Positions 1 through 58,706 of a DNA stretch of 64,000 nt are shown here, piece by piece. The first letter of the stretch is position 1; the number at the start of each line of letters is the position of its first letter. The notes below the pieces were generated by a model. The model was not told the DNA's origin, did no database searches, and worked only from the letters and a program-made list of their open reading frames with translations. The stretch comes from Planctomycetota bacterium (GTDB lineage Bacteria > Planctomycetota > GCA-002687715 > CAIWVZ01): positions 2,603-66,602 of the forward strand of contig JAFMJN010000001.1 of assembly GCA_017853435.1 (NCBI GenBank), written 5' to 3'. The position numbers were made by a program, and so were the translations under genes.

Positions 1-322
1 TCCGCACATCCCCGCATCGCGGCCCGCGGCCGCGGCGTTGTCGACTCCCGTCGACGCGCTCCTCGCCCGCGTTCCCCCGGACGGCGTCGTCCGCATCGCG
101 CCCATGTCGACGAAAGGCGAAGCCCGCGAAATGGCGGCGCGCGCCGCGCGGCTTCTGCGCCCGAGGCGCGTCGTATGGATCGACCCCGACGGTCCCATCG
201 ACGTGCTCGCGACGCCCGGCTGGACGCTGGCCTTCGGTCCGACGCCGGATCCGATGCCCGCGGGAACCGTACTCCTCGCCTCGGCGCCGGGCGTCTTCGC
301 CGTGGAGGTCCTTCCGCGATGA
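1..322 (+). CDS. 3' part of a hypothetical protein CDS. The frame is open from the window edge and the gene starts upstream of the window.
   Basis: The frame at positions 2,5,8... has no stop back to position 1. The stop TGA at 320-322 overlaps the ATG at 319-321 of the next gene (ATGA coupling). No recognisable domain. Confidence 0.35.
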   Translation, partial: PHIPASRPAAAALSTPVDALLARVPPDGVVRIAPMSTKGEAREMAARAARLLRPRRVVWIDPDGPIDVLATPGWTLAFGPTPDPMPAGTVLLASAPGVFAVEVLPR

Positions 323-1653
323 GCGCCGTCGTCGCGGTCCTCCTGCTCGCCGTGTCCGCATGGCCTCTCGGTCGACGCCTCGCCGCGGCACTCCCGCCGG
401 CCGCATCGCCCGCATGCCGCATCGCCACGGAAATCCTCGCGGGCTTGATCGTCCATGCGGGACTCGTCCACGTGCTCGTTTGCATCGGCGTCCCGCTGAA
501 GGGCGCGTTCGGCTTCGTCGGCGCCGTCGGCGTCGGCGCCGCGGTGATCGGTCCGACTCCCGCGGCTCGTGGGTCGTCGCCCCTTCCACGCATGTTCGGC
601 CCGCTCGTCGCTCTCGTGATCGTCGTGACGGCGTCGGCGCCGCTCGTCGAAGGTTTGAATCGCGCCCCCCGGCGCAACGACGCCGAATTCATCTGGCTGC
701 CGAAAGCCGAGCGTCTTTTCGACGAAATCCCGCCGATTCCTTGGTCGGCGCCGGAACACGCGCACGCCGAATACCCACGGGGGTGGCCCGCGCTCGTCGC
801 GGCGGCGGGTGCTTTCGATCAACCCGTGCCCGACGAAGCGCCGAACGTCGTCGGCGTCCTGTTCATGGTGCTCGTGCTTCTTTCGATCGTCGATGCGGCG
901 GCCTCGCGCGGACGACCGTGGGCCGGACTCGCGGCGGCGGCGGTCCTCGGACTGAATCCCGAATGGTCGGCGCTCGCGTGCTCGGGACTCGCCGATCTTC
1001 CGCTCTCGGCGGCGTTGCTTTTGGTCGTCATGGCGACTCCGCGTGAAGACGACGGCGCCCCGCTCCTCGCCGTCGCGGCCGCCTTCGGAGCCGCCTGCCT
1101 GAAGGACGAAGGATGGGTGCTGCTCGTCGCCGTCGGCGTCGCCGATTCCCTTCGCGCCGTCCGAACGCGATCGACGCGTCCGTTGGTCGCGTCCGCGATC
1201 GCGTGGGCGCTGCTCGTTCCGTGGCTCGTCCTTCGCGCACCGGTCGGCTCGCGCACGACGCTGCTCGTTCCGTGGCTTCCCGAAAACGCCGGATGGTTTT
1301 TCCGTCGTATCGCGGAAACGGCGAAGGAACTTCTGCAGATGGGATTCGGCGACGGGACGACCTATCCCGAGTTCCCGGGCGTCGCCGCGGGATCCATCGT
1401 CGTATTCACCGCCGTCGTCGTGGCCTCGGGTGCGGCGCTCGTGTGCGGCGGTCCCTTCAAACTTCGTACGCCCGCGATCCTCGGCCTCGCCGCGTTCGCC
1501 GTGTGGTGCGTCACGCCCGATCCGCTGCGGTGGCACGTCTGGACGTCGGCGGATCGCATCGCGTGCCAACTCGCGCCCGCGGTGCTGCTCGCGGGCTTCA
1601 CCGCCCTGTGGCCGCCCCGTCAGGGTGCGGTCGGCGGTAATCCGGCCAACTGA
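319..1653 (+). CDS. Polytopic integral membrane protein, about 12 hydrophobic segments. Possibly a membrane glycosyltransferase-like protein, but the family is unassigned.
   Basis: ATG at 319 is translationally coupled to the upstream ORF. The 444-aa product is dominated by Leu/Ala/Val-rich predicted TM helices (MSAVVAVLLLAVSAW..., VLFMVLVLLSIV..., WALLVPWLVL...). Confidence 0.5.
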   Translation: MSAVVAVLLLAVSAWPLGRRLAAALPPAASPACRIATEILAGLIVHAGLVHVLVCIGVPLKGAFGFVGAVGVGAAVIGPTPAARGSSPLPRMFGPLVALVIVVTASAPLVEGLNRAPRRNDAEFIWLPKAERLFDEIPPIPWSAPEHAHAEYPRGWPALVAAAGAFDQPVPDEAPNVVGVLFMVLVLLSIVDAAASRGRPWAGLAAAAVLGLNPEWSALACSGLADLPLSAALLLVVMATPREDDGAPLLAVAAAFGAACLKDEGWVLLVAVGVADSLRAVRTRSTRPLVASAIAWALLVPWLVLRAPVGSRTTLLVPWLPENAGWFFRRIAETAKELLQMGFGDGTTYPEFPGVAAGSIVVFTAVVVASGAALVCGGPFKLRTPAILGLAAFAVWCVTPDPLRWHVWTSADRIACQLAPAVLLAGFTALWPPRQGAVGGNPAN

Positions 1654-2879
1654 CGACGCAGAAGGTCGACGGCGCGCCCGGCGGCCAATCCGCGAATCTG
1701 CTCGCGACCGCCGCCGAAGCGGAACGTCACGGCGACCGTCGCGGAGGCGTCGGCCACCGCGATCCACACCGTTCCTTCCGGCACACCGCGATCGGCCCCG
1801 GGGCCCGCGACGCCGGTCGTCGCCAATCCGTGCGTCGTACCGAATCGACGACGGACGCCTTCGGCCATCGCCCGCACCACGGCTTCGCTGACCGCCCCGT
1901 GCGCCGCGAGCACCGACGCCGGAACGTCGAGCTCGCGCTCCTTGACCGCGTCCGCGTACGCGACGACGCCACCTCGGAAGTACGCCGAGGCTCCCGGCAC
2001 GTCGACGAGAAGCGACGCGACGAGCCCCGCGGTCAACGACTCGGCGACCGCGATCGTCGCACCGGCCGCCACGGCCGCCGCGGCGACGGCTTCGGCGGGC
2101 AACGCCCGACCGGGGGCGAGCGAGGACGCGGAGAATCGCCGACGAATCTCGGCGACGTCTCCCTCGACGCGTCGCCGGGCCTCGTCGTCCTCGGACGCCG
2201 TCGACGTCACGACGAGCGTGACGTTTCCGAGCCTCGGATACGAACCGATCGACGGATCGCGGTCCCGCACCATCAGGTCGGCCAACGCCTCGCCGATTTC
2301 GGCCTCCGGAATGCCGCACAACGTCACCGAATCCGTTCGGGGCGCGCGCGCACGCCCGGGCCACGCGTCGATCCGCGGAAGCAGATGACGTTCGATCAGC
2401 GTTCGGAACTCGATCGGCACTCCCGCGACGGCCAGCACCAAAGTTCCGTCGTGTTCGCGCAGGATCGCGGGGGCGGTGCCGACCGGGTTCTCGAGCGCCA
2501 CGCATCCCTCGGGAAGATCGGCCTGACGCAACGTGGATTCGGTCACCGGCCGTCCGCGGGCCCGCGTTCGTGCGGCCAATGCGTCCGCGAGAACCGCGTC
2601 GCGGCGGATCGACACACCGAACGCGTCCGCCAATCCGTCGCGGGTGAGATCGTCGAGCGTCGGCCCCAAGCCTCCTCCGACGACGACGATCGGGGCGCGA
2701 CGCAAGGCGTCGCGAACGGCTTCGGCGATCGCTCCCCGTTCGTCGGGGACGGTGACGCGTCGAACCAGCGGCACGCCGCGCGCACGCAGGACGGACGCGA
2801 TCCAATGGGCGTTGGTGTCGAGAACGCGGCCCGCGAGGAGTTCGTCGCCGACGGAAACGACGACCGCGGCCGGGGTCAC
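1620..2879 (-). CDS. cinA: CinA family competence/damage-inducible protein. N-terminal MoCF-binding domain plus C-terminal PncC-type NMN amidohydrolase domain.
   Basis: VVVSVGDELLAGRVLDTNAHWIA...VVGGGLGPTLDDLTRD matches the MoCF-binding fold. The C-terminal half (IAVAESLTAGLVASLL...GGVVAYADAVKERELDV...) matches the CinA C-terminal domain. GTG start at 2879 overlaps the tatC stop (GTGA). Confidence 0.8.
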   Translation of the reverse strand: MTPAAVVVSVGDELLAGRVLDTNAHWIASVLRARGVPLVRRVTVPDERGAIAEAVRDALRRAPIVVVGGGLGPTLDDLTRDGLADAFGVSIRRDAVLADALAARTRARGRPVTESTLRQADLPEGCVALENPVGTAPAILREHDGTLVLAVAGVPIEFRTLIERHLLPRIDAWPGRARAPRTDSVTLCGIPEAEIGEALADLMVRDRDPSIGSYPRLGNVTLVVTSTASEDDEARRRVEGDVAEIRRRFSASSLAPGRALPAEAVAAAAVAAGATIAVAESLTAGLVASLLVDVPGASAYFRGGVVAYADAVKERELDVPASVLAAHGAVSEAVVRAMAEGVRRRFGTTHGLATTGVAGPGADRGVPEGTVWIAVADASATVAVTFRFGGGREQIRGLAAGRAVDLLRRQLAGLPPTAP

Positions 2880-4261
2880 CGGAGCCGATTCCCCGCGACC
2901 TCGGAGCCGCGCGACGCGAGAATGCCGTCGAGTCTCGCGACCGCGGCCGCGCGCATCGCGTCGGTGAGTTCCGCGTCGGCCGCGGCGGGAACCGACGCCC
3001 CCGACGGATCGACGGCATCGAGCACCGCGACCGCGGTGTCGAAGGACTCGCGTGCGCCGACCTCGAGCGCGTTGCGGAGTTTCGGAAGGACGTCGGACAA
3101 CGTGAGGTCGGCAACCACTTCGGCCCGCCACACCACGGCTCCCGCCTGCACGCGAACGGCACGCCACGTGGTTCCGTCGGCGCGACGATTCACTACGACG
3201 GGCGAATCTTCGGTCAGTTTGAACCGAACGACCGCGAGGCGTCCGCCCCCGACGACGACGAAGTCTCGTCCCGCCGTCCCCTCGCTCAAGCGGAACGCGT
3301 GGGTCGGCACGACTCCGAGAACATCTCCCCCGACCTCGGGCCAAGGGACCACCGCCTTCGCGACGGTTTCCACCTTGCCGTCGGCGTCCACTTTGCGCCA
3401 CGATTTCATGAGCGGCTCGCGCATGACCCAAAGCAGCAACGCGATGGCCACCGGAATCCTGAGATTGCGCGCGACGTCGGCGGGCTTGAAACTCGGAAGT
3501 CCTTTCCCCGTCGCGATGGCGGAGAGGATGATCCCCACTTCGTAAAGGAAGCAGAGCGGAATCGCGACGAGCGACTGGGTGATCGGATCGGGAGGGGTGA
3601 GGATGCCCGCGACGATGAAAATGACGAGGATGGTCACGCGCCTGTAGGAGCGGTACCCGTCCGGGTCCACGAACCCGACTTTGGCGATGCCGATCATCAA
3701 CAACGGCAAGAGGAACGTGACGCCGAGCAACAACGTCAGCGTCGCGAAGAGGCTGAGATACTCGTCGAGACTGACCCAACTTTGCGCGATGTCGGCCGGG
3801 GCGAACCCGACCATGTAGCGGAGCGCGATGGGCAGGAGCAGCTTGTAGCCGAAGACCACTCCGGAGACGAAAAGCGCGACCGAGAACGGGACGATCTTCC
3901 GCACCCACCCCTTTTCACGGTCGTACAAACCCGCGGAGATGAATCCCCAGATCTGCGCGACCCAATAAGGCGCGGCGAAGATCAAACTCACGAAAAGGCT
4001 GACCTTGAACCACGTCACGAACGGCTGCGTGGGCGACGCGTACTTCAACGTCGGATCCAAACCGAGGTCGCGCATGGCGTCCTGGTAGGGGGCGACGACG
4101 ATCCGCATGCAATCGTCGGCGTACGTGGTCGCCAACGCGAACATGACCCCCGTGACGATGGCCGACCGCCACACGCGGCGACGGAGTTCTTCGAGATGAT
4201 CGAAGAAACTCATCCGCGTGGTCTCGACGGGATCTTGGACGGGTTCGGTCATGGGGATCAA
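2876..4261 (-). CDS. tatC: Twin-arginine translocase subunit TatC with an unusual C-terminal soluble extension of about 200 aa.
   Basis: N-terminal SFFDHLEELRRRVWRS followed by six hydrophobic helices typical of TatC (about 250 aa). About 200 further residues follow the last TM segment (EPLMKSWRKVDADGKVETVAK...), beta/Gly/Val-rich, with no recognisable domain. Confidence 0.75.
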   Translation of the reverse strand: MIPMTEPVQDPVETTRMSFFDHLEELRRRVWRSAIVTGVMFALATTYADDCMRIVVAPYQDAMRDLGLDPTLKYASPTQPFVTWFKVSLFVSLIFAAPYWVAQIWGFISAGLYDREKGWVRKIVPFSVALFVSGVVFGYKLLLPIALRYMVGFAPADIAQSWVSLDEYLSLFATLTLLLGVTFLLPLLMIGIAKVGFVDPDGYRSYRRVTILVIFIVAGILTPPDPITQSLVAIPLCFLYEVGIILSAIATGKGLPSFKPADVARNLRIPVAIALLLWVMREPLMKSWRKVDADGKVETVAKAVVPWPEVGGDVLGVVPTHAFRLSEGTAGRDFVVVGGGRLAVVRFKLTEDSPVVVNRRADGTTWRAVRVQAGAVVWRAEVVADLTLSDVLPKLRNALEVGARESFDTAVAVLDAVDPSGASVPAAADAELTDAMRAAAVARLDGILASRGSEVAGNRLR

Positions 4262-4347
4262 CGGGGGTTTTAGCAGGACGCTCCCCGTGAAAACAACGCA
4301 GGCCCCCGCACCCTTCGGGAGCGGAGGCCTGCGTCGAGAAGCCTATC

Positions 4348-5613
4348 TCAGAACTGGAGGAAAGGCTCGAGGTCGCGCGCGCGGAGGACCGGGATGGACC
4401 AGCCTTGCGCCTTCTTGTAATCCTCGGACTCGGTCGGATCGGCCTCTTCGCCGTCCTTGATGCCGACGATCACAAAGTCGGTTTCCACCGTGACCTTGGA
4501 TTCGACCTTCACGCCGTGGGATTCCAAAATCTTGGTCGCCATTTCGCGGTTGTAGCGGCCCGGGAGTTCACCGAGCACGACGAACCGGAGGGTCTTCGAC
4601 TTGTCGAAGATCGGCGAAAGGATCATGTCGCCCTCGCCCACCATCTCGCCCGAAGCCTCGGACTCGATGACGCATTCGGCGCGCTCGGCACCGACGGAGA
4701 CGACCACCACGCGGCCCGTGAAGACCTTCGTGTTGCCGCGGCGGATCTGGTAGGTGCGGAAGGCCGCACCGCGCCACACCTTGTCCTTCGAACCGATGTC
4801 GATGAAGCAGGTCTTCATCGCGCGGTTGACCGCGAGAACCTTGCCGTCCGGCGTCTCGGATTCCTTCGAGACCTGGACCTGGTTCTTGATCGCGGCGACC
4901 TGCGCATCCATGGTCTTCATGGCGCTGCGGGCGGCGACGACTTCCTTGTTGGATTCGTCCTTCGTCTTGGCGGCCTCGTCCGTCAACTTGCGGTTTTGGG
5001 ACTGGGCGTCGTCGCGCTCCTGCGTGAGCTGCGCGATTTGGCCCTGAAGGCGCGCCTGCGCGTTGTCCGATTCCTGCTTGAGTTGGTCGAGGTCGGTGGC
5101 ACGGCGCTTGTCGGCTTCCGTGAGCGCATCCGACTTGCCCTTCACTTCCGCTTCGAGCGTCTTGACCTGCGTCTGCAGGGCGGCGACTTCGCCGGACGCC
5201 GTCTTGTAGCGGTTGACGAGGACTTGGAGACCTTCGACGAGAGTCATGGTGCTCGCCGACTCGTCGCCGACCGCCTTGTAGGCGTCCTTCAGCGCGTTCT
5301 TCGCGAGCGTCGTGTACTTGCCGATGTACTTGTCTTCACCGGCGTCCGGGAGCGGATCGGCGACGGTTTCGAGAGCGGGCGGGCTGACCGGCACGCCTCC
5401 GCCGACGACCTTCGAGATGCGGTCGAAGCAGGCGGCGTTCCATTCGCCTTCGAGACGCGACTTCTTCAACTCGCTCGAGGCCTTCTTGGCGTCGGCGAGA
5501 GCCTTGTCGCGCTGAGCGGTGGCGTTCCAAGCGAAGGCCGTCACACCCAATGCGACCAAAAGGACGGCGATGAGCCATGCGATGTGCACGGCGCCGCGTT
5601 CCGAATGAGACAT
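4348..5613 (-). CDS. Membrane-anchored coiled-coil protein with a C-terminal BRCT domain.
   Basis: ATG at 5613 (MSHSERGAVHIAWLIAVLLVALGVTAFAW is a single TM). A long Ala/Lys/Glu/Gln-rich coiled-coil region follows. The C-terminus (KTLRFVVLGELPGRYNREMATKILESHGVKVESKVTVETDFVIVG...KKAQGWSIPVLRARDLEPFL) aligns closely with the LigA-type BRCT domain. Confidence 0.6.
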   Translation of the reverse strand: MSHSERGAVHIAWLIAVLLVALGVTAFAWNATAQRDKALADAKKASSELKKSRLEGEWNAACFDRISKVVGGGVPVSPPALETVADPLPDAGEDKYIGKYTTLAKNALKDAYKAVGDESASTMTLVEGLQVLVNRYKTASGEVAALQTQVKTLEAEVKGKSDALTEADKRRATDLDQLKQESDNAQARLQGQIAQLTQERDDAQSQNRKLTDEAAKTKDESNKEVVAARSAMKTMDAQVAAIKNQVQVSKESETPDGKVLAVNRAMKTCFIDIGSKDKVWRGAAFRTYQIRRGNTKVFTGRVVVVSVGAERAECVIESEASGEMVGEGDMILSPIFDKSKTLRFVVLGELPGRYNREMATKILESHGVKVESKVTVETDFVIVGIKDGEEADPTESEDYKKAQGWSIPVLRARDLEPFLQF

Positions 5614-5803
5614 CCGATTCCTCCGCCCCGAAGGGCGTGTTCCTGACACTGACCGGCCAAGGTTGTCGCTCGCAACTTGGCGGCCGGATTCAACGATGCG
5701 ATCCGAGCGAAGCGGGGCGGATTCTACGGACACGTTCGAAGTCCCGTCAAGCCAAGGGGCAGGGTTCGTGGATTCCGGGGGCCTCGGGGGGTACCCTCTC
5801 GGC

Positions 5804-6418
5804 ATGTCAGCCCCTCCCGTGATCGGCCTCTGCGGGGGCATCGGAGCCGGAAAATCGACGGTTGCTCGGGGTTTTGAGGCCCTCGGCGCCCGGGTGCTCG
5901 ATGCCGACCGGATCGCCCACGAGGTCCTCGACCTCCCCGAGGCCCGGGAGACCCTGTCCCGGAAATTCGGGACGGAAATTCTGACCGCGGACGGCAAAGT
6001 CGACCGGGCGGTCCTCAAGACCCGGGTTTTCGGGGACGCTCCGGACCGGGTGGCCGACCGCCGTTTCCTCGAGTCGGTGGTGCACCCGCAGGTGCGCGAT
6101 CGGATCGTCGCCGCGGTCGCCGACGCGCTGGCGGCTGCGGTCCCGCCTCCGGCGATCGTCCTCGACGTCCCGCTGTTGCTCGAAGGTCCGCTCGATGCGC
6201 TCTGCACACGGCGCGTGTTCATCGACGTCCCCGACCCGCAGCGGTTCCGTCGCACCGCGCGGACGCGCGGTTGGACCGAAGCCGAACACCGTGCGCGTGA
6301 AGCCGCCCAGATGCCGCTCGACGCGAAGCGCGCCCGCTGCGACGCCGTGATCACGAACGTCGAAGATCCGACCGCGCTCGCTGCACGCTGCCGCGAGCTC
6401 CTCGCCGACTTTTCCTAA
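5804..6418 (+). CDS. coaE: Dephospho-CoA kinase.
   Basis: GLCGGIGAGKSTV P-loop, DADRIAHEVL and VVHPQVRD motifs. ATG at 5804. The ORF-track start at 5663 is probably an upstream in-frame extension. Confidence 0.85.
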   Translation: MSAPPVIGLCGGIGAGKSTVARGFEALGARVLDADRIAHEVLDLPEARETLSRKFGTEILTADGKVDRAVLKTRVFGDAPDRVADRRFLESVVHPQVRDRIVAAVADALAAAVPPPAIVLDVPLLLEGPLDALCTRRVFIDVPDPQRFRRTARTRGWTEAEHRAREAAQMPLDAKRARCDAVITNVEDPTALAARCRELLADFS

Positions 6419-9400
6419 CGCGACTCGGGAGCCTTCGGCTCGTCCTGCAGGTTGTCGCTCGGCACGACGACGCCGACGCCCAAAAGGTCCGCACGACCGT
6501 TCGCCCAGCGTTCGAACGCATCGCGGTGCGCGGCGACGTCTTCGGCCGACGGTTCGGGAGCGAACGCGTCGAGCGGGAGCCCGGTGATCCGCCGCAGAAG
6601 AACGTCGGCACCGTCGCGCAGCCCGGGATTCGGCGCGCCGATCGCACGGATGAGCGTCGCCACTCCCTTGCGGTCGATGCGCCCCGTCGCGAGGAACGTC
6701 TCGCACGACGCGGTATCGAGTTGCGCGGCGCGCAGCGCGATCCGCAACCACTCGGCGCGGTCGCGGTCGCCGTGATCCGCCACCCAACGCTCATATTCGG
6801 CGAATCGCGAAGCCGGAGCCTTGGCGACCGACCCGAAGTAGGTGAGTCGACGGAATGCGGTTTCCGCCGCGGGGTCTCCGGCGGGGTTGCGGAGGAACTC
6901 GAGAAGCGGCGCGAGCGCTTCTTTCGCGCCCGCACGTCCGAGGGTCAACGCCACGGCACGCGCGAGTTCCTTGTCGTCTCCCGAAAGGGCCGGAACGAGC
7001 GCCCCGGCCGCGGCGGGTCCGAGAAGGTCGCCGAGCACGACCGCCGCCTGCAACTTGACGCTCTTGTCCTTCGACTTCGCGAACAGAGTCGCCGTCTCGT
7101 CGGCGGACGCACGCGTCCGCATACGCCCGAGCGTCGCGACGGCTTCCGCCGCCAAAGCGGCATCGGTCGATTCGCGTGCGAGAGTTCCCAACGCGATCGC
7201 CGCGCGCCGACCGCGCGCGGCCTGCAGCCCTCTCAGCACGGCGAAGCGATCGGGCACCGATCCCTCGCGGTAGATCTCGACGAGTTTCGGAACGGACGCG
7301 TCGCCGCCGGTGCCCCCGAGGGCTTCGATCGCACGCGCACGGAGGCCGCGGTCGCCGGAGGCGAGCACGGTTTCGAGGAGCGCCGGCGTACGAGGATCGT
7401 TCAGCTGCGCCAACGCGCGGATGCAGGTTTCGCGCACACGAGGTTCGTAGTCGCGCAATCCGTCGATCAACGCGTCGGCGGCCGCCGGATCTCCGCGGCG
7501 GCGCCCGAGTTCTTCCGCGGCGACGGATCGCAATCCCGCCGAACCGCTCCGCAACGCGGCGACGGCGGCGGTCGTCGGTGCCGGTGCGAGGTAGCGCTTC
7601 AACGCCTCCTCCGCGCGGAACCCGGGATATTTCGTCAGCGTGTCGAAGACCGCATCCCGAACCTTCACGTCGTTCGAGACGGCGAGCGCTTCGACCAAAA
7701 GTCGGGCTTCTTCCGTCATCCCCGCTTCCGCACGGAGGAACGCCGCGAGTCGCGAGGCCTGCGCCAATCGCCACTCGGTGGGCGCCGACGCCATCACCTC
7801 CGCCGCGGCGGTACGCGCTTCCTTGGCGAATCCGGCGAAACCGCCGACGGCGCTGTCGAGCAGTCGGGCTTCGCGGGCTGCGGGGTCGAGCCCCGCACGA
7901 ACCTTCATTTCGGCGTCGAGCCACGCGCGACGCGCCGTCGGATCCGTCGGCGCGAAACGCTGCCACGAGAGATCGCGCTGAAGCCGCAGCACGCGTTCGA
8001 CGAGATCCTTCACGCGTCCCTGCGGCGGTCCGACGCCGCGACGCAGAGCGGTGTCCCCGCCGCGACGGATCAGCACTTCCCAACCCTCACCGGGCGGCGC
8101 GTCTCCCCGCGCGGGCGGCGCGTCGAGCAATCCCGACGCCGCGATTTCGGCCGCGAGATCGGTGCAGGCTTCCATGCCGATCCAAAGCGGCGCACCCGGG
8201 CGCGGACGTTCCGCTTCCGCGAGGTCTCCGGTCAGGAACGCGGCGCGCGTGCGACCGAGATCGTCGCTCAGTCGCACCATCAGCGAACTCGTCGCCAACT
8301 CTTCGGCGGACAATCCGACGATGCGGCGTCGCGCTTTGAACGTATCGCGCACACGCGGCCACCACGCCTTCCACTTCGGAGCGTTCGGACCGAACGCTTC
8401 GCCCGTGAGAAGTTCGAGGCGCCGGAAGACCGGCCCTTCGACCGCGACGTAGTCGTTGAAGAAGACACCGCCCGCCACGGCGTCGAGCAGAATCGGCACG
8501 AGGTAGCGGTCGGCGATGTCACGCAACGCGGCGTCGCGCGCGCGGTAGGCGACCGTCGCGAGAAGCACCGCGGCGGATGCGCGATGGAACGGGTCGTCGC
8601 CTTGAAGGAACTTCATCGCGCGTCCCCGCAGAGCGGCGTCGTCCTCGGGGATCTTCCATCCGCGACCGGACTCTTCGATGCCCGCGAGCGTCAACATCGC
8701 GTACGCCGCGGAACGCATCACGCCTTCGCGGGCGGAGCCGAGCAGGCGTTCGGTGCCCTTCGGAGACGCGTGGAGAGCGAGATGCCGCGACGCGGCGTCC
8801 GCAACGCCGACTTCCGGGTCGAGGAACGCTTCGAACCACGCGTCGAGATCTTCGACGCCGGGAATGCGCCCGAGCAACGTGAAACCCGTCACGCGAATCG
8901 GTGCCTTCACGGACGCGCACATCGCCAGGACTTCCGCCGTGTAGCGGGCGTCGAGGGTTTCGGGCATCGCCTTCATCGCCGCTTCGCGCACGCCGCCCGC
9001 GGACGACGTCACGAAGGGCAAGACCTCGGCGGGTCCCATGAGAGGGTCGATCCGAACGAGCGCTTCCATGAGCCACGGAAGCCCGGCACGGTTCGTGGGT
9101 TCGCGGACGGCGCGCACGAGGGCCGGCGCGGCCTTCGCCCACTTCATTTCCGCGAGAGCGTGGGCCGCCCCCGCCTGCACGCGCCAGTCGTTCGATCCGA
9201 GGGCTTCGACGAGACGATCGGCGACCTTGTCGCCGAGCCCCGACAACGCGTCCGCCGCGTCGCGACCCGTCTTCTGCGGAAAGCGATCGAGCCGGGCGAA
9301 AAGTGCGTCGACGGGGTCGATCGGATCCTGCGGCGTCGTGGCGTCGGCGGGGGCCGGGGCCGACTCCGGGCCCCGTTTCGGAGCCGGGGCCACCGCCGGG

Positions 9401-9537
9401 GGCGGAGTTTCCTCCGGGGGTGAAAACACCGGACGCGGCCTCGGCTTCGGGTTGCGCGGCGGCGTTTCCTGAGCGACGAGGCCCGCCGCGACGAGGAGGA
9501 CGACGGCGAAGAACGGAACGACGTGGCGGTGGGTCAT
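6415..9537 (-). CDS. Secreted HEAT/PBS-lyase-like repeat protein (1040 aa) with an N-terminal signal peptide and a Pro-rich linker.
   Basis: The start at 9537 gives the signal peptide MTHRHVVPFFAVVLLVAAGLVAQE. Then come a Pro-rich segment and many repeated 'A..ALG..G...A...L..LL.D.D..VR..A..AL' HEAT-like units. The stop overlaps the coaE stop (convergent). Confidence 0.6.
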   Translation of the reverse strand: MTHRHVVPFFAVVLLVAAGLVAQETPPRNPKPRPRPVFSPPEETPPPAVAPAPKRGPESAPAPADATTPQDPIDPVDALFARLDRFPQKTGRDAADALSGLGDKVADRLVEALGSNDWRVQAGAAHALAEMKWAKAAPALVRAVREPTNRAGLPWLMEALVRIDPLMGPAEVLPFVTSSAGGVREAAMKAMPETLDARYTAEVLAMCASVKAPIRVTGFTLLGRIPGVEDLDAWFEAFLDPEVGVADAASRHLALHASPKGTERLLGSAREGVMRSAAYAMLTLAGIEESGRGWKIPEDDAALRGRAMKFLQGDDPFHRASAAVLLATVAYRARDAALRDIADRYLVPILLDAVAGGVFFNDYVAVEGPVFRRLELLTGEAFGPNAPKWKAWWPRVRDTFKARRRIVGLSAEELATSSLMVRLSDDLGRTRAAFLTGDLAEAERPRPGAPLWIGMEACTDLAAEIAASGLLDAPPARGDAPPGEGWEVLIRRGGDTALRRGVGPPQGRVKDLVERVLRLQRDLSWQRFAPTDPTARRAWLDAEMKVRAGLDPAAREARLLDSAVGGFAGFAKEARTAAAEVMASAPTEWRLAQASRLAAFLRAEAGMTEEARLLVEALAVSNDVKVRDAVFDTLTKYPGFRAEEALKRYLAPAPTTAAVAALRSGSAGLRSVAAEELGRRRGDPAAADALIDGLRDYEPRVRETCIRALAQLNDPRTPALLETVLASGDRGLRARAIEALGGTGGDASVPKLVEIYREGSVPDRFAVLRGLQAARGRRAAIALGTLARESTDAALAAEAVATLGRMRTRASADETATLFAKSKDKSVKLQAAVVLGDLLGPAAAGALVPALSGDDKELARAVALTLGRAGAKEALAPLLEFLRNPAGDPAAETAFRRLTYFGSVAKAPASRFAEYERWVADHGDRDRAEWLRIALRAAQLDTASCETFLATGRIDRKGVATLIRAIGAPNPGLRDGADVLLRRITGLPLDAFAPEPSAEDVAAHRDAFERWANGRADLLGVGVVVPSDNLQDEPKAPESR

Positions 9538-9922
9538 GGAAGTCCGAAACCGAAGGGTCCCCCATCGTGTCAGGACGGTCCCTCCGCCGCAACGCCTCCC
9601 CGACCCGCCCGAACCATTCGTTTTCGCGCCGAGTCCCCGAAAAAAGACGTCGGGCCACCGGCGAACCGATGGCCCGACACGGACCTCCACCATTGTGCCG
9701 TCTGGCGGAGGGCGCTCAGGCCCTCGTAAGGAAGTGGGGACGCCCGCACGGCTCCGTCTCGTGCAACCCGAGGGATGCGGTGACGTCGTCGAACGGGTCC
9801 GCCCCCCGCACAACGTTCATTGGGGCGAGCGCAGCTGACCAAAGGCGGGCACGGGAGAAGTCCGAGTCACGTTGCCACGCCGGGGGGCCTGCGGCAAGGC
9901 GACGCCGCGCGAACACGATGCT

Positions 9923-23863: not shown

Positions 23864-24676
23864 TCAGTGTTCCGGATGAACCGTGCCGCTCACGAAGAGC
23901 GACGCGAGTAGGGTGAAGACGTAGGCCTGCAGGAAGCAGACCAGAAGTTCGAGGACGTTGACGAAGAGGGCGAGCAGCACCGACGGCGCCGCGACCCAGT
24001 AGGCCTTCGCCACGAAGATGAGACCGAGGAATGCGCCCACGACGAGGTGGCCCGCGATCATGTTGGCGAACAAACGGATGGCCAACACGCCGTGCTTGAT
24101 GAAGAACCCGACCACTTCGAGGACGAAGAGGAGCGGGACGAGCCAACCCGGGAGCCCCGGCGGGATGAAGGCGTGGATGAAGCCTCCGATCCCGTTTTCC
24201 CGAATGCCGCCGAAGATCGACACGAGGAGCACCGACACCGCGAGCATCCCGGTCATGCCGAGATTGGACGTGGCGGTCCCGCCGATCATCGGAATCGGAA
24301 CCATCCCGAGAAGGTTGGTGACGAAGATGAAGGAGAACAGCGTGCAGAAGAACGGGAGGTACTTGTCGCCGTGGTGGCCCATGCCCGGGCGCACGAATTC
24401 GTCGCGGATGAAGACGACGAGCGATTCACCGGCGTTTTGCAGGACGCCGCGCGGGATCATCGACCCGGCGGGACGACGCCCGGCCACGTAGGCGAGGGCG
24501 AAAACGACCAGCCCCGACAAGACCGCCATGATGGAGAAGTTCGTGACCGGGATCGCCCAAGAGAGCCCCGGGATCGTGATCTTCGCCCACGGAGTGTGGA
24601 TGTTGTCGAGGCAGTGGTGGCGAATCCACTCCAAGGGATCGGAGATGTCGCCGGAGAGCAGGAACGGTTGGACCAT
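23864..24676 (-). CDS. atpB: Fo ATP synthase a subunit.
   Basis: RLFANMIAGHLV and LQAYVFTLLASLF signatures. The ATG at 24676 is preferred over the ORF-track start at 24733. Confidence 0.85.
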   Translation of the reverse strand: MVQPFLLSGDISDPLEWIRHHCLDNIHTPWAKITIPGLSWAIPVTNFSIMAVLSGLVVFALAYVAGRRPAGSMIPRGVLQNAGESLVVFIRDEFVRPGMGHHGDKYLPFFCTLFSFIFVTNLLGMVPIPMIGGTATSNLGMTGMLAVSVLLVSIFGGIRENGIGGFIHAFIPPGLPGWLVPLLFVLEVVGFFIKHGVLAIRLFANMIAGHLVVGAFLGLIFVAKAYWVAAPSVLLALFVNVLELLVCFLQAYVFTLLASLFVSGTVHPEH

Positions 24677-24695
24677 CGCTGAGACTGTCTCTCGC

Positions 24696-25109
24696 TCAAC
24701 CACCACCCGCCTTCGGGCCCGCGTCACCGGCACGCGCCGGGACCGCCAGAAGGCATGCCACGCACAAGTGCGCCTGTCCCACCACGCCGAGCGCCAAGGC
24801 CCAGACGAACGGTTCCGACGGCACCACCCGGGTCACGGCGACCGCCCCCCACGCCGTGAGGAGGATCATCGATTTCACCGCGATCGAGACTCCCCACACA
24901 CGGAGGAAATTCTCGGGATCGCGCGAAAGCCCTCCGAAGAGGACCGCGTGGGAAGCGGCACCCGCAACCCCCGCGACGACCGAACCCGCAAGCAAGGCCA
25001 CCCCGCCGCCGACGACGTCGGCACCCGGCACCCAAAGCACCGCCACTCCGTAGGCTACGAGAGTCGCGGCGACCCAGGCGACGGCATAGACGACACGGGA
25101 GGAGGTCAC
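24696..25109 (-). CDS. atpI: ATP synthase protein I (AtpI-like small hydrophobic protein).
   Basis: About 137 aa with four hydrophobic segments directly upstream of atpB. GTG at 25109 overlaps the stop of the upstream small ORF (GTGA). The ORF-track start at 25217 would overlap the upstream gene. Confidence 0.45.
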   Translation of the reverse strand: MTSSRVVYAVAWVAATLVAYGVAVLWVPGADVVGGGVALLAGSVVAGVAGAASHAVLFGGLSRDPENFLRVWGVSIAVKSMILLTAWGAVAVTRVVPSEPFVWALALGVVGQAHLCVACLLAVPARAGDAGPKAGGG

Positions 25110-25390
25110 CGCGGTTCTCCGTCCGACCGCTCGATGGCGGCCGACGTCCGGAGCAGATCCCACGTCCCGATCGCTATTCCGAGAAGAGACCCCACGAGCT
25201 TCCCCCACGGCTCCCATCCGCGACGCGCGTCGAGGAGGTCACCGAGCCACCACCCCGCGGCGACCAAGACCGCGAAGGTCAAGCCGCATCCGAGGTAGCG
25301 CAGCCCCTTGAAGGAGCCCGAGGAGCGCGATCCGTCTCCCATACCTGCTTGCCCGGAGGAATCCGTCGAAAAATGCCCTTGACAAGACAT
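25106..25390 (-). CDS. AtpZ/ATPase_gene1-like small membrane protein at the head of the atp operon. The start is ambiguous (ATG at 25390 or 25342).
   Basis: GLRYLGCGLTFAVLVAAGWWLGDLLD...WGKLVGSLLGIAIGTWDLL is a two-TM motif resembling ATP-synthase gene-1 proteins. First gene of the atp cluster. Confidence 0.45.
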   Translation of the reverse strand: MSCQGHFSTDSSGQAGMGDGSRSSGSFKGLRYLGCGLTFAVLVAAGWWLGDLLDARRGWEPWGKLVGSLLGIAIGTWDLLRTSAAIERSDGEPR

Positions 25391-30982: not shown

Positions 30983-33130
30983 TCACCAACCCTCGCCGGG
31001 GCCGACGGGGCGATCGTTCATGGCGTCGCGGACGAGCTTCGTGGCGCGCGCTTCGTCCGCGGCCTTCTGCTTCTTCTCGCGATCCGCCTTGCGTTCGGCT
31101 TCCTTGCGGGCGGTTTCCTTGCGCGCCTCGATGTCCTTGTCGGAGTCGGGAGCGTTGAGATCCACCCACGCCTTGTTCTTGAGGTTTTCCCACGTGAACA
31201 CGGCGGAGCCGGGCGTCGTCGGAGCGACGCGCTGTTTGATCTGATCGATGTTGGTCTTCGACGCGGCCCACATCTCGTCGACCGTCGCGGCGCGGCGCGC
31301 CTCGAGCAGCGGGACCGCCGAAGCGCCCCACGCCGTTTCGAGTTGCAGCATGCCGATGCGGCCTTCCTTGAGTTCGGCCAACGCGTTCAGACGCGACGTC
31401 TTGCGCCAGAAGCGGGCGGCGCGCTCGTCGCCGTCGAGTTTGTCGTCGGCGGTGAAGCGGGCGTCGCGGCCGCCGTTCGAGCGGCGGAGCCAACCCGTAT
31501 CGCGGACGTCGACGTTCTGTTCCTTCGCGACCGAAGCGAAAGCTTCGGCCTCGACGGACGCCTTCGCGGCTTCCGACGCTTCTTCCTGCTTCTTCTTCTC
31601 TTCGTTTTCGATTTCGAGAATGGCGACGCCGTCCGACGCCTTGTCGCGGGACAGGTTCTTTTCCTTGATGCGGTTCTCGATCGCGGCGACGCGGCCCTTC
31701 TCGAGATCCTCGAGCTTCGACTTCAGCTTTTCGGCGACGCGATCGTCGACGGCCTTACGGAAGGCTTCGGCCTTGGTCTGCGCCATTTCGCCGGCCTTCT
31801 TGGCCTTCCAGGCGTCAACGACCTTCGTCAGAACACCTTCGTCGTCGAGGGTCGGCTCGCGTTCGGCGTTGAAGGCCGTGACCTTCCACACCGCGACGTT
31901 CGAACCCGGCTCTTCGACCGCGCCCTTGCAGGCGTAGGCGTCCGAGAAGACGGCGTCGAGAACGGCGGGCGGGGTCAACTTGCCTTCACGGATCTGCTGG
32001 AACACCTGCAGTGCCGCGTTGGACGAGGGGAAGTCCGGGTGCTGTTGAATCTTGATCGAGTCGAGATTCTTGACGTCGGCGAGGCGGAAGCCGTACTTGT
32101 CGGCGATCGCCTTGCCGTCGCCGCCGCCCTTCCACTCCGCGAACGCCTTTTCGGCGAGCTTCGCGAGGAGGTATTCCTTCTTCACGCGTTCCTTGACGAG
32201 GTCGAATTCCGTCGGGTTGTCCGCGGGCTTCGAATCCGTCGTGGTCTGACGCGCCTTGGCGGCCGCTTCGGCGAACTTCGCGTAGGACTCGGGGAACGCG
32301 TTGTAGCGGATCTTCGCCTGCTCGTCGGTGACCGAGAGACCGGCCGCCGCGACCATCGCCGCCCACGTGTCCTTCCACGCCTTCTCGAGCGCGGCGTCGT
32401 CCATATCCGCGGTGCGGACGTACATCACCTGACCGTCGATTCGATCCGGAACGCGATTCGCGGCTTTCAGCGTCGCGTCGTCGGCGAGGTACTTCGCGAG
32501 CGTCGCTCGATCTTCCGCGTTCGCCGGATCGACCTTGACGTCGTCCTTCGAAATGCTGAACCACGCGAACTTCGCGCGCAGGCTTTCGTAGTCCTGCTTG
32601 AAGCGTTCGAACACCTGCTCGTAGGTGGCCGAGGGACGCGCGCGATCGGAGAGCGTACGGAACGTGCGGATCGCGGTGAGGTCGCGGTAGAGCTCGCGGA
32701 CCGTCTCGGGGCTGCGCTTATAGAGATTGACGTCGACCTGATCGGCACCCGGTTGCGCGGCGCGCGCTTCGTTGATCGAAGCCACGATCGCGCCGTCGGT
32801 CGCGATCACGCCCGCTTCCTTCGCGAGCGCCTTGAGGACGAGGTACGACCAGACGACCTGCGGGTCGTCTTCGTACTGCACCTGAATCTGGTTCGCGACC
32901 TGCTGCTTCGAGCGGAGGTTGCGGTCGAGTTCCTGCGCCGTCATGTAGTAGTTCTCGACCGACACCGTGACCGGTTCGCCGTTCGGGAGCTTGAACGTGC
33001 CCATGTCGCCGGTCGGTCCGCTTGAACCGCGCATGCTGTCGCTCAGCGTGGCCCATGCACCGAGGCCACCCAAGGAAATGACGCAGAACCAGAGAATCGG
33101 CGCCTGGTAGCGCTTCATGAAGTCGAACAT
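30983..33130 (-). CDS. Membrane-anchored periplasmic chaperone-like protein (PpiD/SurA-N-like) with a long acidic, Lys-rich C-terminal region.
   Basis: ATG at 33130 preceded by GGAGA. N-terminal anchor (MFDFMKRYQAPILWFCVISLGGLGAWA). A SurA-N-like helical region follows. No clear parvulin signature. The C-terminus has a KEKNLSRDK...EEKKKQEEASEAAKA low-complexity region. Confidence 0.45.
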   Translation of the reverse strand: MFDFMKRYQAPILWFCVISLGGLGAWATLSDSMRGSSGPTGDMGTFKLPNGEPVTVSVENYYMTAQELDRNLRSKQQVANQIQVQYEDDPQVVWSYLVLKALAKEAGVIATDGAIVASINEARAAQPGADQVDVNLYKRSPETVRELYRDLTAIRTFRTLSDRARPSATYEQVFERFKQDYESLRAKFAWFSISKDDVKVDPANAEDRATLAKYLADDATLKAANRVPDRIDGQVMYVRTADMDDAALEKAWKDTWAAMVAAAGLSVTDEQAKIRYNAFPESYAKFAEAAAKARQTTTDSKPADNPTEFDLVKERVKKEYLLAKLAEKAFAEWKGGGDGKAIADKYGFRLADVKNLDSIKIQQHPDFPSSNAALQVFQQIREGKLTPPAVLDAVFSDAYACKGAVEEPGSNVAVWKVTAFNAEREPTLDDEGVLTKVVDAWKAKKAGEMAQTKAEAFRKAVDDRVAEKLKSKLEDLEKGRVAAIENRIKEKNLSRDKASDGVAILEIENEEKKKQEEASEAAKASVEAEAFASVAKEQNVDVRDTGWLRRSNGGRDARFTADDKLDGDERAARFWRKTSRLNALAELKEGRIGMLQLETAWGASAVPLLEARRAATVDEMWAASKTNIDQIKQRVAPTTPGSAVFTWENLKNKAWVDLNAPDSDKDIEARKETARKEAERKADREKKQKAADEARATKLVRDAMNDRPVGPGEGW

Positions 33131-33251
33131 CAAAATGTCTCCGCGGTGCGGAAGCAAACCCCTGTCGCGCAGGAAGATGGCACACCATCCTCGGTCCACG
33201 CGGGGAGGGGAATGTTAGGAGATGGGACGTCGGGGTTCAAACCGCCGCACG

Positions 33252-33856: not shown

Positions 33857-34852
33857 TCAGAGCGTACCGTCGATCCAAAGGTTGTAAAGGCGTTCGATCC
33901 GGAGGTTCCACGCGAGGAATTCGAGCGTGCCGACCGGTTCCGTGACGAGGCCGGCTTCGATTTCCCCCGAAACCTCGACCCAAGAGGCCGTTCGGGGCGG
34001 AATCCGGCGCAAAAGACGCACGATCTCGAATCGACGACGCCCGGAGCCGTCGTCGACCGAGAGGATTCCCGTGCGCTCGCCGGGAGCGAGGGCGAACGCC
34101 CGATCGGCGACCGCCGGTGCCAGGCTTTCACGGGCGACCGGGGGCATCCGCCCCCCCGCCCGAGCGGTTTCGTGGGTCGAATACTTCATCGCCAACGCGG
34201 CCATGTCGGCGCCCGCGTCAAGTTTCGCGGCGACTTCCTTCGCCGTCGCTTCGTCGTCGACGAGGATGATCTGCAATTCGACGCGATCCGCGCGCAACCC
34301 GTCATAGCGGACGACGCGGGAGAGTTTCCATCGCTCCACGAGATCGTCGCGGCGCGCGGCCTTCCAGTCGTCGAGCGACTGCCGATATTCGAGGCGCACG
34401 AAGGATTCCGGCGTCGCCCCTTTTCCGTAGGCCTTGAGGGCCCGCAGCGCGAGATCCTCGACCGCCTTCGCGAGTTGCGCGTCGACCACGTCTTCGGGGA
34501 CCTTCAAGCCGTGCTTGCGGACTTCCTGCTCCACCACTTCCCGAACGACGAGTTGATTCAGCGCGGCGAACGCTTGTTGGCGAAGCGTCGCGCCCGGGGC
34601 CCCGGCGGACTGGGTTCTGAAGAGATGTCGGACGACGTCGTCGCCGGTGAAGACCCGATCTCCCACGCGCGCCACGGGTCGACCGCCGGCCGTCGCGACC
34701 GGAGTCGCCGACGCGGGTGCCGGAGGCGCCGGGAGAACTTCGACGGACGAAGCCCCCGCGACGACGGGCGTCGGCGGCGGCAACGGGCGCTGCGGCGTGC
34801 ATGCCGCAAGCATGCACGCGAGTAGAAGCCCCGAGGGGCGGAATCCCCTCAC
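33857..34852 (-). CDS. Lipoprotein with a parvulin/SurA-like PPIase-type domain (possibly degenerate). Last gene of the pseudopilin operon.
   Basis: GTG at 34852 overlaps the upstream stop (GTGA). Lipobox LLLACMLAAC. RVELQIILVDDEATAKEVAAKLDAGADMAALAMKYS resembles a PpiC-type PPIase domain. Confidence 0.45.
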   Translation of the reverse strand: MRGFRPSGLLLACMLAACTPQRPLPPPTPVVAGASSVEVLPAPPAPASATPVATAGGRPVARVGDRVFTGDDVVRHLFRTQSAGAPGATLRQQAFAALNQLVVREVVEQEVRKHGLKVPEDVVDAQLAKAVEDLALRALKAYGKGATPESFVRLEYRQSLDDWKAARRDDLVERWKLSRVVRYDGLRADRVELQIILVDDEATAKEVAAKLDAGADMAALAMKYSTHETARAGGRMPPVARESLAPAVADRAFALAPGERTGILSVDDGSGRRRFEIVRLLRRIPPRTASWVEVSGEIEAGLVTEPVGTLEFLAWNLRIERLYNLWIDGTL

Positions 34853-36294
34853 TTGTACGAGACGCCGCGATCGCGCATGTGACCTTGGCAACGCGGGCAC
34901 ACCGCGCGAAGGACGTCGCCCTGCGAGCCGGAGAACTGGATGTAGCCCTTCGCGCCGCAGCGTTCGCAGTCTTCCCACTTCTCGCCCGTGACTTCGACCT
35001 TCTTCGCGTTTTCCGCCCAGAACGCCATCATCCACTGCTCGCGCTCGGACGACTGGGAACGGGTCCACCATTCCTCCTTGGTCGGAGGCTTCGGCAGACG
35101 ATCCTGAGGCGGGGCGGCTTGCTGGCCGTTGCGACCCTGCTGACGCGCTTGTTGCGCGTAGGCCTGCGCCATCGCGCGCTGCATCTCCGCTTGGAGTTGC
35201 TGCGCCTGCTTCGCGACGCCGAGGATGACGAACGACCCGGATCCGTACATCGCGAATCGGGTGGCATGCCACCGGCGATCCTCCCACATCTTCTCGACCT
35301 CGTTCTTCGGGTCGAGTTTGTGGCGCGCGGCGAGGTCGGCCACGACTTCCTTGTGGATTTCGGAGCGGAGCTTCCGGCGTGCTTCGTCGAGCGTCAGTTT
35401 CTCGTCGCGGGAGAGCGCGCGGATCTTGTTCTTCAGGACGAGGTCGTATTCGTTCGCGACGATGCGACGGAAGTACTCGTAGCGCTTCTTGGCGAAGGAC
35501 TCTCGATAGGTCGTGATCTCGGCGCGAATACCGGCGGGAACGTCGGGCAGCTTTTCGATCTCGTCGAGGGCGGCGACCGCCTTGTCGAATTGATTCAACA
35601 TCGCCTGTTGGCGGGCGCGGTCGAGTTCGTCGCGGAGCACCTTGTTCTTCGCCAACGCCTCGAGCCGTTCGAGCGTGTTGGCGATCCAATCCTTTTGAAA
35701 CTCGGCGTCGGCGGCCCGAACCTTGAGCAGATGACCGACCGCCTGCTCGTAAAGCCCCAGGGCGTCGGCGAGGCGGGCGAGATCCATGTGGGCGGCGACG
35801 TCGTCGTCGGTCGCTGCGGCTTCGGCTTCGCGCTTCGCGAAGTAGTCGGCCGACTTCCAAATCGCCGTCACGGGCACCTGCGTCTGTTCGATCCCGTCCT
35901 TCACGATGTTGGCTCGCGGGATCACCTGCTTCGTGCCCGCGACCATGACCGACAATTCCTTGTCGTTCTGCGCGTCGATGCGACCGACGACCTCGTCGCC
36001 GGTCTTGAGCGTGATCCGAACGCCCGGCTCGGAGGGAATCCGACTCGATTCATCCTCCTTCAATCCGCGCGCGATCATGATCCGGTTGCGATCCGCCTCC
36101 CGAATCAACGACCACGGAACGAACACCGTGCCGCCGCCGTCGAGGAGCTTGACGCGAAGGCCGCGATCGTTCGCCTCGAGAATGCTGACGTGCAGGTAGC
36201 GTCCGTCGACGAGCACGAGATCCTCGGCGTGGAGCCACGCCGGGCAGAGGACGAGGACGAGAAGGGCGAGTAGACGGCGCATGGCTGTCTCCAT
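34849..36294 (-). CDS. Secreted protein with helical repeats and a C-terminal CxxC...CxxC zinc-ribbon-like motif.
   Basis: Signal peptide MRRLLALLVLVLCPAWLHAED. C-terminus CERCGAKGYIQFSGSQGDVLRAVCPRCQGHM. The ATG overlaps the pseudopilin stop by 1 nt (TAATG). Confidence 0.45.
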   Translation of the reverse strand: METAMRRLLALLVLVLCPAWLHAEDLVLVDGRYLHVSILEANDRGLRVKLLDGGGTVFVPWSLIREADRNRIMIARGLKEDESSRIPSEPGVRITLKTGDEVVGRIDAQNDKELSVMVAGTKQVIPRANIVKDGIEQTQVPVTAIWKSADYFAKREAEAAATDDDVAAHMDLARLADALGLYEQAVGHLLKVRAADAEFQKDWIANTLERLEALAKNKVLRDELDRARQQAMLNQFDKAVAALDEIEKLPDVPAGIRAEITTYRESFAKKRYEYFRRIVANEYDLVLKNKIRALSRDEKLTLDEARRKLRSEIHKEVVADLAARHKLDPKNEVEKMWEDRRWHATRFAMYGSGSFVILGVAKQAQQLQAEMQRAMAQAYAQQARQQGRNGQQAAPPQDRLPKPPTKEEWWTRSQSSEREQWMMAFWAENAKKVEVTGEKWEDCERCGAKGYIQFSGSQGDVLRAVCPRCQGHMRDRGVSYK

Positions 36295-36746
36295 TATTGC
36301 GGCCTTCCGGTGCGACCCCGGAGGATGGCCTGATTATCCGACGGCAGCGCGATCGGAAGGTAACCGAATTCGTAGGTGCGTTCGCCGCCCGGAGCGGGAA
36401 CGACGAGGGTGACGCGGGCCAACACTTCCCGACCGGCATCGTCGCCGGGAACCGACTCGAAGAGGTAACGGCACTTCCAGCGGTTCGACCCGCCGAGACC
36501 GAACTCCCCGTCCCCCCGGCTCTTGCCGCCCTTCGAGCCGCTCGCGACCCGCGCGGCGGCCTCGTTCGAAATACGCTCCACGGCCTCGGGCAAGAGCAAC
36601 GCGGCATCCATGCGTTCCGCCGCCTCCGCTTCGAGATCGAGGGCTCCGGAAAACAGGGCGATGACTCCCGACATCCCGATGACCAAAAGTCCCATGGCCA
36701 CGAGGATTTCGACGAGCGTGAATCCTTTTTCGCCGCGACGGGTCAT
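36294..36746 (-). CDS. Prepilin-type N-terminal cleavage/methylation-domain protein (minor pseudopilin).
   Basis: KGFTLVEILVAMGLLVIGMSGV class III signal motif at the N-terminus. ATG at 36746. 4-nt overlap with the upstream gene. Confidence 0.7.
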   Translation of the reverse strand: MTRRGEKGFTLVEILVAMGLLVIGMSGVIALFSGALDLEAEAAERMDAALLLPEAVERISNEAAARVASGSKGGKSRGDGEFGLGGSNRWKCRYLFESVPGDDAGREVLARVTLVVPAPGGERTYEFGYLPIALPSDNQAILRGRTGRPQ

Positions 36747-43979: not shown

Positions 43980-43989
43980 ACGTGCGCTT

Positions 43990-44616: not shown

Positions 44617-44617
44617 C

Positions 44618-47464: not shown

Positions 47465-47470
47465 CGGGGC

Positions 47471-48316: not shown

Positions 48317-48319
48317 GGC

Positions 48320-58693: not shown

Positions 58694-58706
58694 CGCACGG
58701 GCCTCA

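Follow-up and report, generated by a model that had tools for sequence, protein, structure and literature searches.

The envelope of Planctomycetota is atypical: the periplasm is enlarged, the membranes are invaginated and division proceeds without FtsZ. To our knowledge, few lineage-specific structural proteins of this envelope have been identified. Every characterised BRCT domain that we know of acts inside the cell. In the type IV pilus system, the FlgT-C-like domains of TsaP form the spokes around the periplasmic PilQ secretin (10.1101/2020.05.29.123786). TsaP and FlgT, both of which are periplasmic, turned out to be the closest sequence relatives (FlgT_C beta-roll, PF16538) of a beta-barrel in the protein described here. 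This protein is encoded in a 64,000-nucleotide stretch of DNA from a Planctomycetota bacterium (hereafter, the window), and joins a membrane anchor and a long helical stalk to the barrel and a C-terminal BRCT domain.

The gene lies on the reverse strand at 4348..5613 (-) and is complete, its translation comprising 421 codons plus a stop. This open reading frame is real, with a GC3 of 0.84, and full-length homologues are 403-470 aa long. A Shine-Dalgarno sequence, GGAGGA, was read directly from the sequence at 5619..5624 (-), 5 nt before the ATG at 5613. Further upstream, at 5721..5750 (-), a putative sigma70-like promoter (TTGACG, an 18 nt spacer and TAGAAT) agrees with the consensus at 10/12 positions; one such site was found against 0.1 expected in shuffles, the assignment being a consensus match. 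It falls within the 190-bp divergent region that the BRCT gene shares with coaE. On the 3' side, the gap between the stop codon and tatC contains an intrinsic-terminator-like hairpin at 4289..4334 (-), GCAGGCCUCCGC...GCGGGGGCCUGC followed by GUUGUUUU, with a minimum free energy of -46.9 kcal/mol (z -4.55; 0/200 shuffles were equally stable). An equivalent GC hairpin was found between the orthologue stop and tatC in 7/7 related loci folded, followed by a clear U-run in 6/7 and a weak one in L013. Because of its own promoter-like site and terminator, the BRCT gene looks like a separate transcription unit. The window DNA was 91.5% identical to a contig of 'uncultured planctomycete LaPlata_bin-2350'.

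The protein begins with a short tail, MSHSER (residues 1-6; 5596..5613, -), recognised from the sequence and its relatives. Hydropathy and the AlphaFold2 (AF2) model place a single transmembrane (TM) signal-anchor helix at residues 7-30 (GAVHIAWLIAVLLVALGVTAFAWN; 5524..5595, -), with a Kyte-Doolittle mean of 2.41 over 19 aa and a helical conformation in AF2. All full-length family members share this kind of short tail and TM helix at the N-terminus, and in the GAV subfamily the fourth TM position is a polar H, S or N in 47/64 sequences. One member, P0012, carries the JGI label 'PulG'. We considered and rejected a prepilin-like N-terminus, as the segment reads R-G-A-V-H-I-A in place of the G|F-T-L-x-E processing motif, has no Glu at +5 and is not matched by the N_methyl model, which does match true pseudopilins in the same window.

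Beyond the anchor, AF2 (run on an 18-sequence alignment) predicted helices at residues 7-70, 94-122 and 125-251, so that the stalk occupies residues 31-251 (4861..5523, -) with helices at 31-70, 94-122 and 125-251. The last of these is a single 127-residue helix with pLDDT >90 at 140-220, and would be ~19 nm long if straight. Both the alignments and AF2 show a non-helical Gly/Pro loop within the stalk, at residues 68-93 (VVGGGVPVSPP...; 5335..5412, -). Its motif, 'VGxxVPxxLPxP', is conserved in the family alignments, where G71 is invariant, and the region ~71-93 has low pLDDT and no helix in AF2. Heptad periodicity in residues 125-251 was modest, with a power of 0.82 at 3.5 residues vs 0.24 +/- 0.24 in shuffles, 3.4% of which matched the observed value. 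The stalk also gave weak matches to many coiled-coil models (SMC, filament, golgin), which is the usual coiled-coil noise. A preliminary description of this DNA had proposed a membrane anchor, a helical stalk and a terminal BRCT domain, and hydropathy, AF2 and Pfam bear this out. It had further described everything before the BRCT domain as a TM helix plus ~300 aa of coiled coil; the TM helix and the helices at ~31-70 and 94-251 stand, but the conserved loop breaks the helices and a barrel at residues 255-336 had been missed.

This barrel (4606..4851, -) is a six-stranded beta-barrel, or beta-roll, probably of the FlgT-C/TsaP type, with D256, G257, F285 and D329 as invariant residues. Pfam FlgT_C (PF16538) was matched by 6/15 diverse relatives (best 2e-5), the window protein itself falling below the model, and a barrel-only profile gave a single match among PDB sequences, M. 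xanthus TsaP (E 0.0095). In fold searches, the barrel was also matched by cytoplasmic F1, FliI and HerA, and in F1 and FliI a barrel is likewise followed by an alpha/beta domain. Two barrel cysteines, Cys269 and Cys314, tended to occur together: 39 sequences had both, 5 only the first, 38 only the second and 89 neither, giving an odds ratio of ~18 from raw counts that ignore kinship. Such coupling would fit an optional disulfide.

The C-terminal domain (residues 340-421; 4351..4596, -) is a LigA/RFC1-type BRCT domain with a degenerate phosphate pocket (L347, E377). The LigA-type assignment had been made from the letters alone, and a Pfam search now confirmed it, with BRCT (PF00533) scoring 28.5 bits for the whole protein and 31 bits for its C-terminal part against a gathering cut-off of 21.3. 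The same model matched 15/15 diverse relatives (best 2.5e-9). A family profile searched against the PDB found the T. thermophilus LigA BRCT (1l7b, 1.2e-6) and the RFC1 BRCT (1e-4), the LigA and RFC1 BRCT domains were also the top-ranked Foldseek matches, and the PHROGs NAD-ligase family matched the domain at 2.3e-8. The model has the three-layer alpha/beta fold with a four-stranded parallel sheet that marks a BRCT domain. The identification of the C-terminal domain of the window protein as BRCT is therefore solid. A defence or phage protein was rejected as an alternative identity, since PADLOC returned only weak SMC-like coiled-coil matches and PHROGs only the ligase BRCT.

We then mapped the pocket columns through HMMER alignments to 1l7b and 2k6g, taking the Ser/Thr and Lys columns to be the BRCT phosphate pocket, as in RFC1 and BRCA1. 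Among 173 sequences, the Ser/Thr column (Thr of 'FVITG') was occupied by L in 75, A in 28, E in 27, V in 13 and I in 12, and the Lys column (Lys of 'SxKT') by E in 39, D in 39, N in 17, R in 15 and K in 11. The Gly after beta1 was retained in 173/173, and the third RFC1 pocket position (R356) was K or R in 89/173. The Ser/Thr-Gly plus Lys signature of the phosphate-binding BRCT subclass is thus lacking family-wide, and the domain was net acidic in 134/171 sequences. Owing to this pocket loss and acidity, it is unlikely that the domain reads phosphopeptides or 5'-phosphate DNA by the known mode. The earlier suggestion that it might tether DNA or phosphoproteins finds no support in this comparison, with the pocket Lys present in 11/173.

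A profile of the barrel plus BRCT region matched 3,719 clusters (50% identity) at E<=0.001 and 2,476 at E<=1e-10. In the best 150 clusters, nearly all proteins were 400-470 aa long and matched at their C-terminus. Every named member came from a Planctomycetota or Phycisphaerae MAG, and no cultured organism was found among the family clusters looked up. Their labels are 'hypothetical' and 'BRCT domain-containing', besides the erroneous 'NAD-dependent DNA ligase' and 'PulG'. The BRCT stalk proteins apparently form a large, uncharacterised, Planctomycetota-specific family, and the TM/stalk/barrel/BRCT order is genuinely a phylum-wide uncharacterised architecture of known domains. Literature searches on BRCT and Planctomycetes, or on planctomycete coiled-coil division proteins, returned nothing relevant.

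In most genomes examined, the gene is single-copy and located in a housekeeping gene block. Tandem paralogue pairs occur in two distant lineages (L010, 6744-7994 and 7998-9551; L015, 5607-6881 and 7001-8398), which hints at hetero-oligomers. Apart from these duplicates, no paralogue with another head domain was found in the window or the 16 loci. Among individual members, P0101 has two BRCT domains and P0059 has the BRCT inserted into the barrel. The orthologue on a contig titled 'Candidatus Kuenenia stuttgartiensis' (L005, CAMARR010000010.1) is 84% identical, and over ~2.5 kb the contig shares 77% DNA identity with the 66%-GC window; the taxonomic label of this contig looks wrong.

Membrane orientation was assessed from the charges flanking the TM helix. 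The window protein has a net charge of 0 in the N-tail and +3 in the 18 residues after the TM, a bias shared by its closest relatives. By the positive-inside rule, the preliminary description had placed the bulk of the protein in the cytoplasm; this holds for the window protein and its nearest relatives, but across the 145 full-length members the charges are reversed. The N-tail was net positive in 122/145 (mean +1.56) and contained at least one K or R in 144/145. The last charged residue before the TM was R or K in 130/145 members and the first one after it D or E in 105/145, while the first 18 residues after the TM were net zero or negative in 114/145. Analysed with the same script, the N-in controls TolA, MreC, FtsB and FtsN (E. 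coli) matched the family pattern and the N-out controls ZipA, TatA and TatB showed the opposite one.

At the family level, the charge pattern favours an N-in/C-out topology, and the periplasmic relatives of the barrel and the coupling of its two cysteines give hints in the same direction. A plain Lys+Arg count, however, favours C-in in 91/148 members, and the sequence evidence on topology is therefore not unanimous. On the basis of the family charges and the barrel relatives together, the C-terminus leans periplasmic, against the cytoplasmic reading. This suggests, against the strong prior expectation of an intracellular BRCT domain, that the BRCT end may face the periplasm and not DNA.

The gene order rho-coaE followed by divergent X-tatC(-ychF)-cinA, where X is the BRCT stalk gene, recurs in 8 independent contexts (the window, with its near-identical relatives L001/L002/L005 and L008 counted as two, and L003, L004, L011, L012, L013, L016) and reaches down to ~25-30% identity. 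The arrangement lies inside a larger housekeeping gene block, and the tatC link is missing in 4 more distant members. Given the terminator and this block, we regard the adjacency to tatC as synteny rather than an operon. No consistently adjacent envelope partner gene was found in the related loci examined, nor any conserved operon partner beyond the housekeeping synteny block. The preliminary description had noted an operon encoding FHA domains opposite the gene. The divergent gene is in fact coaE, and no FHA, kinase or repair gene occurs in the conserved neighbourhood. Among the window ORFs scanned, the only FHA gene is 49987-52446, which lies 45 kb away on the same strand, beside PilM-like and pseudopilin genes.

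Several other features of the window were recorded. TatC (2876-4261, -) is 461 aa long, and the Pfam TatC model spans only residues 21-235; its C-terminal extension of ~220 aa includes a possible extra hydrophobic segment and is common to L001, L003, L004 and L012 (447-477 aa) but not L011, L013 and L016 (244-293 aa). A HEAT-repeat protein of ~1,000-1,130 aa is encoded at 6415-9813 (-), and most related loci (L001, L003, L004, L012, L013) have its gene in the same place, upstream of coaE. At 175-1653 (+), a 492-aa polytopic membrane protein has no Pfam match; in L001 and L003, genes of 448 and 486 aa that also lack Pfam matches occupy the same position, convergent with cinA. Strong coding signal without a Pfam match was also seen at 30983-33199 (-), 34849-36294 (-) and 24528-25298 (+), for products of 738, 481 and 256 aa.

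A pilus/T2SS-like cluster occupies 36294-49990 (-) and 49987-52446 (-). The latter gene, unrelated to the BRCT gene, encodes an 819-aa protein with two FHA domains and a YscD-like cytoplasmic domain, and 48320-49990 a PilM/FtsA-like ATPase fold. The cluster also includes a 948-aa TPR protein, two N_methyl pseudopilins (36294-36914 and 43990-44616) and a 1802-aa ORF without a Pfam match (37909-43317). Two large RHS-repeat proteins are encoded in tandem at 54824-58834 (-; 1336 aa) and 59536-63999 (-; >1487 aa), each with a DUF4595 region. The GC content of this stretch is 0.56-0.62 vs ~0.66, and it may be a horizontally acquired toxin locus.

From the observed architecture and family, we infer the orientation and function of the BRCT protein as follows. 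It may be an envelope strut that is anchored in the inner membrane and carries a beta-roll and a protein-docking BRCT head in the periplasm, an explanation to which we give not quite an even chance. The protein would be N-in/C-out, with the stalk and the barrel-BRCT head in the periplasm. The stalk helices would associate in pairs or bundles to form a rod of roughly 20-30 nm, and the beta-roll would engage its neighbours sideways in ring-type contacts, like those of TsaP and FlgT. At the far end of the rod, the acidic, pocket-less BRCT fold would serve as a protein-docking head. The protein would then serve the cell envelope, or a machine that spans it, as a spacer or tether, and would not read DNA or phosphopeptides.

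A strut of this kind would require a periplasmic BRCT domain, which would be unprecedented; literature searches found none. In the window protein and its closest relatives the charge bias is the opposite one, and the Lys+Arg-only count points the other way as well. The barrel fold also exists in cytoplasmic proteins and the window protein stays below the FlgT_C model, while the kinship-blind cysteine counts and the lack of a consistent envelope partner in the related loci weigh on the same side. The main alternative is the opposite orientation, N-out/C-in, in which a cytoplasmic membrane-tethered scaffold with a ZipA/EzrA layout would use its barrel-BRCT head to bring a cytoplasmic protein or the nucleoid to the membrane. 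We give it a somewhat smaller chance than the strut; it amounts to the model of the preliminary description minus canonical phospho-recognition. In its favour, known BRCT domains are intracellular and the closest ones, in LigA and RFC1, touch DNA; the flanks of the window protein obey the positive-inside rule for C-in, which the Lys+Arg-only count also favours; R356, one of three RFC1 pocket positions, is often basic; and barrel-then-alpha/beta arrangements occur in F1 and FliI. Against the C-in orientation stand the near-invariant Arg/Lys directly before the TM and the acidic residues directly after it, unlike ZipA, TatA and TatB, and the periplasmic location of the barrel's nearest sequence relatives. 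The loss of the pocket Ser/Thr and Lys and the negative charge of most BRCT domains make binding of DNA or a phospho-ligand in the known mode unlikely, and the conserved neighbourhood offers no FHA, kinase or repair gene as a partner.

Two further explanations fare much worse. As the BRCT stalk gene is directly upstream of tatC, its product might be a Tat accessory, a TatB-like component or a dedicated Tat substrate, which we judge very improbable. The order kept in the 8 contexts would fit such a role, as would the absence of any called tatA or tatB beside tatC in those loci and the RR that precedes the hydrophobic stretch in some members. A regular-expression scan of window ORFs >=80 aa, a weak test, found no TatA-like motif. 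However, the strong hairpin parts the gene from tatC in the window and all 7 related loci folded, the adjacency may be plain synteny of a conserved housekeeping block, and it disappears in the 4 more distant members. We rejected a TatA/TatB-like role because of this conserved terminator, an hhalign comparison of the N-terminal profile with E. coli TatB (probability 1.2%) and the lack of a Pfam MttA_Hcf106 (PF02416) match in 17 N-terminal regions; there is also no Gly-Pro hinge. A Tat substrate was likewise rejected: the window N-terminus reads E-R-G, not S/T-R-R-x-F-L-K, RR is confined to some members, and the long, very hydrophobic stretch is that of a typical Sec/SRP anchor. Still less credible is that the C-terminal domain is no true BRCT, but a chance similarity or a decayed LigA fragment fused to a coiled-coil ORF. 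The full LigA model (TIGR00575) does reach only 21.2 bits vs a cut-off of 444, matching at model positions 587-647 (BRCT) alone, and JGI labels several members 'NAD-dependent DNA ligase'. Yet the Pfam BRCT score exceeds its gathering threshold, the model finds each of the 15 diverse relatives, and the protein lacks adenylation, OB, Zn-finger and HhH regions. Full-length conservation over thousands of clusters and the invariant core imply purifying selection on the whole protein. Pfam, the fold matches and cluster-wide conservation effectively refute this artefact reading.

How interesting the family is hinges chiefly on the side of the membrane at which the BRCT domain lies. The BRCT fold is known only from intracellular proteins of DNA damage and replication. 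We tentatively propose, with somewhat less than even confidence, that Planctomycetota have adopted it as the outermost part of an inner-membrane-anchored, periplasm-spanning strut bearing a TsaP/FlgT-type beta-roll. If the strut reading is true, this would be the first extracytoplasmic BRCT domain, and the protein would be a phylum-wide, lineage-specific part of the planctomycetal envelope or of a trans-envelope machine. A periplasmic head would place the BRCT fold in a new compartment, in a use independent of phosphate binding, and would offer a way into the architecture of the planctomycetal envelope. With a cytoplasmic head, the protein would instead be a new membrane-tethered BRCT scaffold in bacteria.

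Compared with LigA and RFC1, the window BRCT retains the 'FVxxG' beta1, the 'G(A/G)KV' turn, the 'TDFxVxG' beta3 and the alpha3 aromatic. Unlike LigA and RFC1, the window protein lacks ligase and clamp-loader domains; its BRCT domain is acidic, has lost the pocket and is joined to a beta-barrel, a stalk and a membrane anchor. As in the window protein, a single N-terminal TM in ZipA and EzrA is connected through a long linker or coiled coil to an interaction domain at the other end. They have no positive N-tail charge and a basic cluster after the TM, the reverse of the BRCT family, and there is no homology; of the two, ZipA was run as a control.

TolA, and more loosely TonB, MreC and GspB/OutB, resemble the protein in blueprint only: behind a short basic tail come one N-terminal TM in which a polar residue is conserved, a few acidic residues and a long helical rod that ends in a small globular head. 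The window protein shows no similarity to the TolA, TonB or MreC domains in sequence or HMM searches, no tolQR or exbBD lies near the gene, and the periplasmic location is one that we infer here. TsaP has a LysM domain and two FlgT-C-like domains, whereas the window protein has no LysM match and one barrel, on which grounds we rejected membership of the TsaP family; the N and M domains of FlgT are also absent. Furthermore, TsaP and FlgT have cleaved signal peptides and are soluble in the periplasm, while the window protein has an uncleaved TM anchor, a long stalk and a BRCT domain. As a strut, it would act like TolA, TsaP and FlgT-type envelope scaffolds while belonging to neither the TolA nor the TsaP family.
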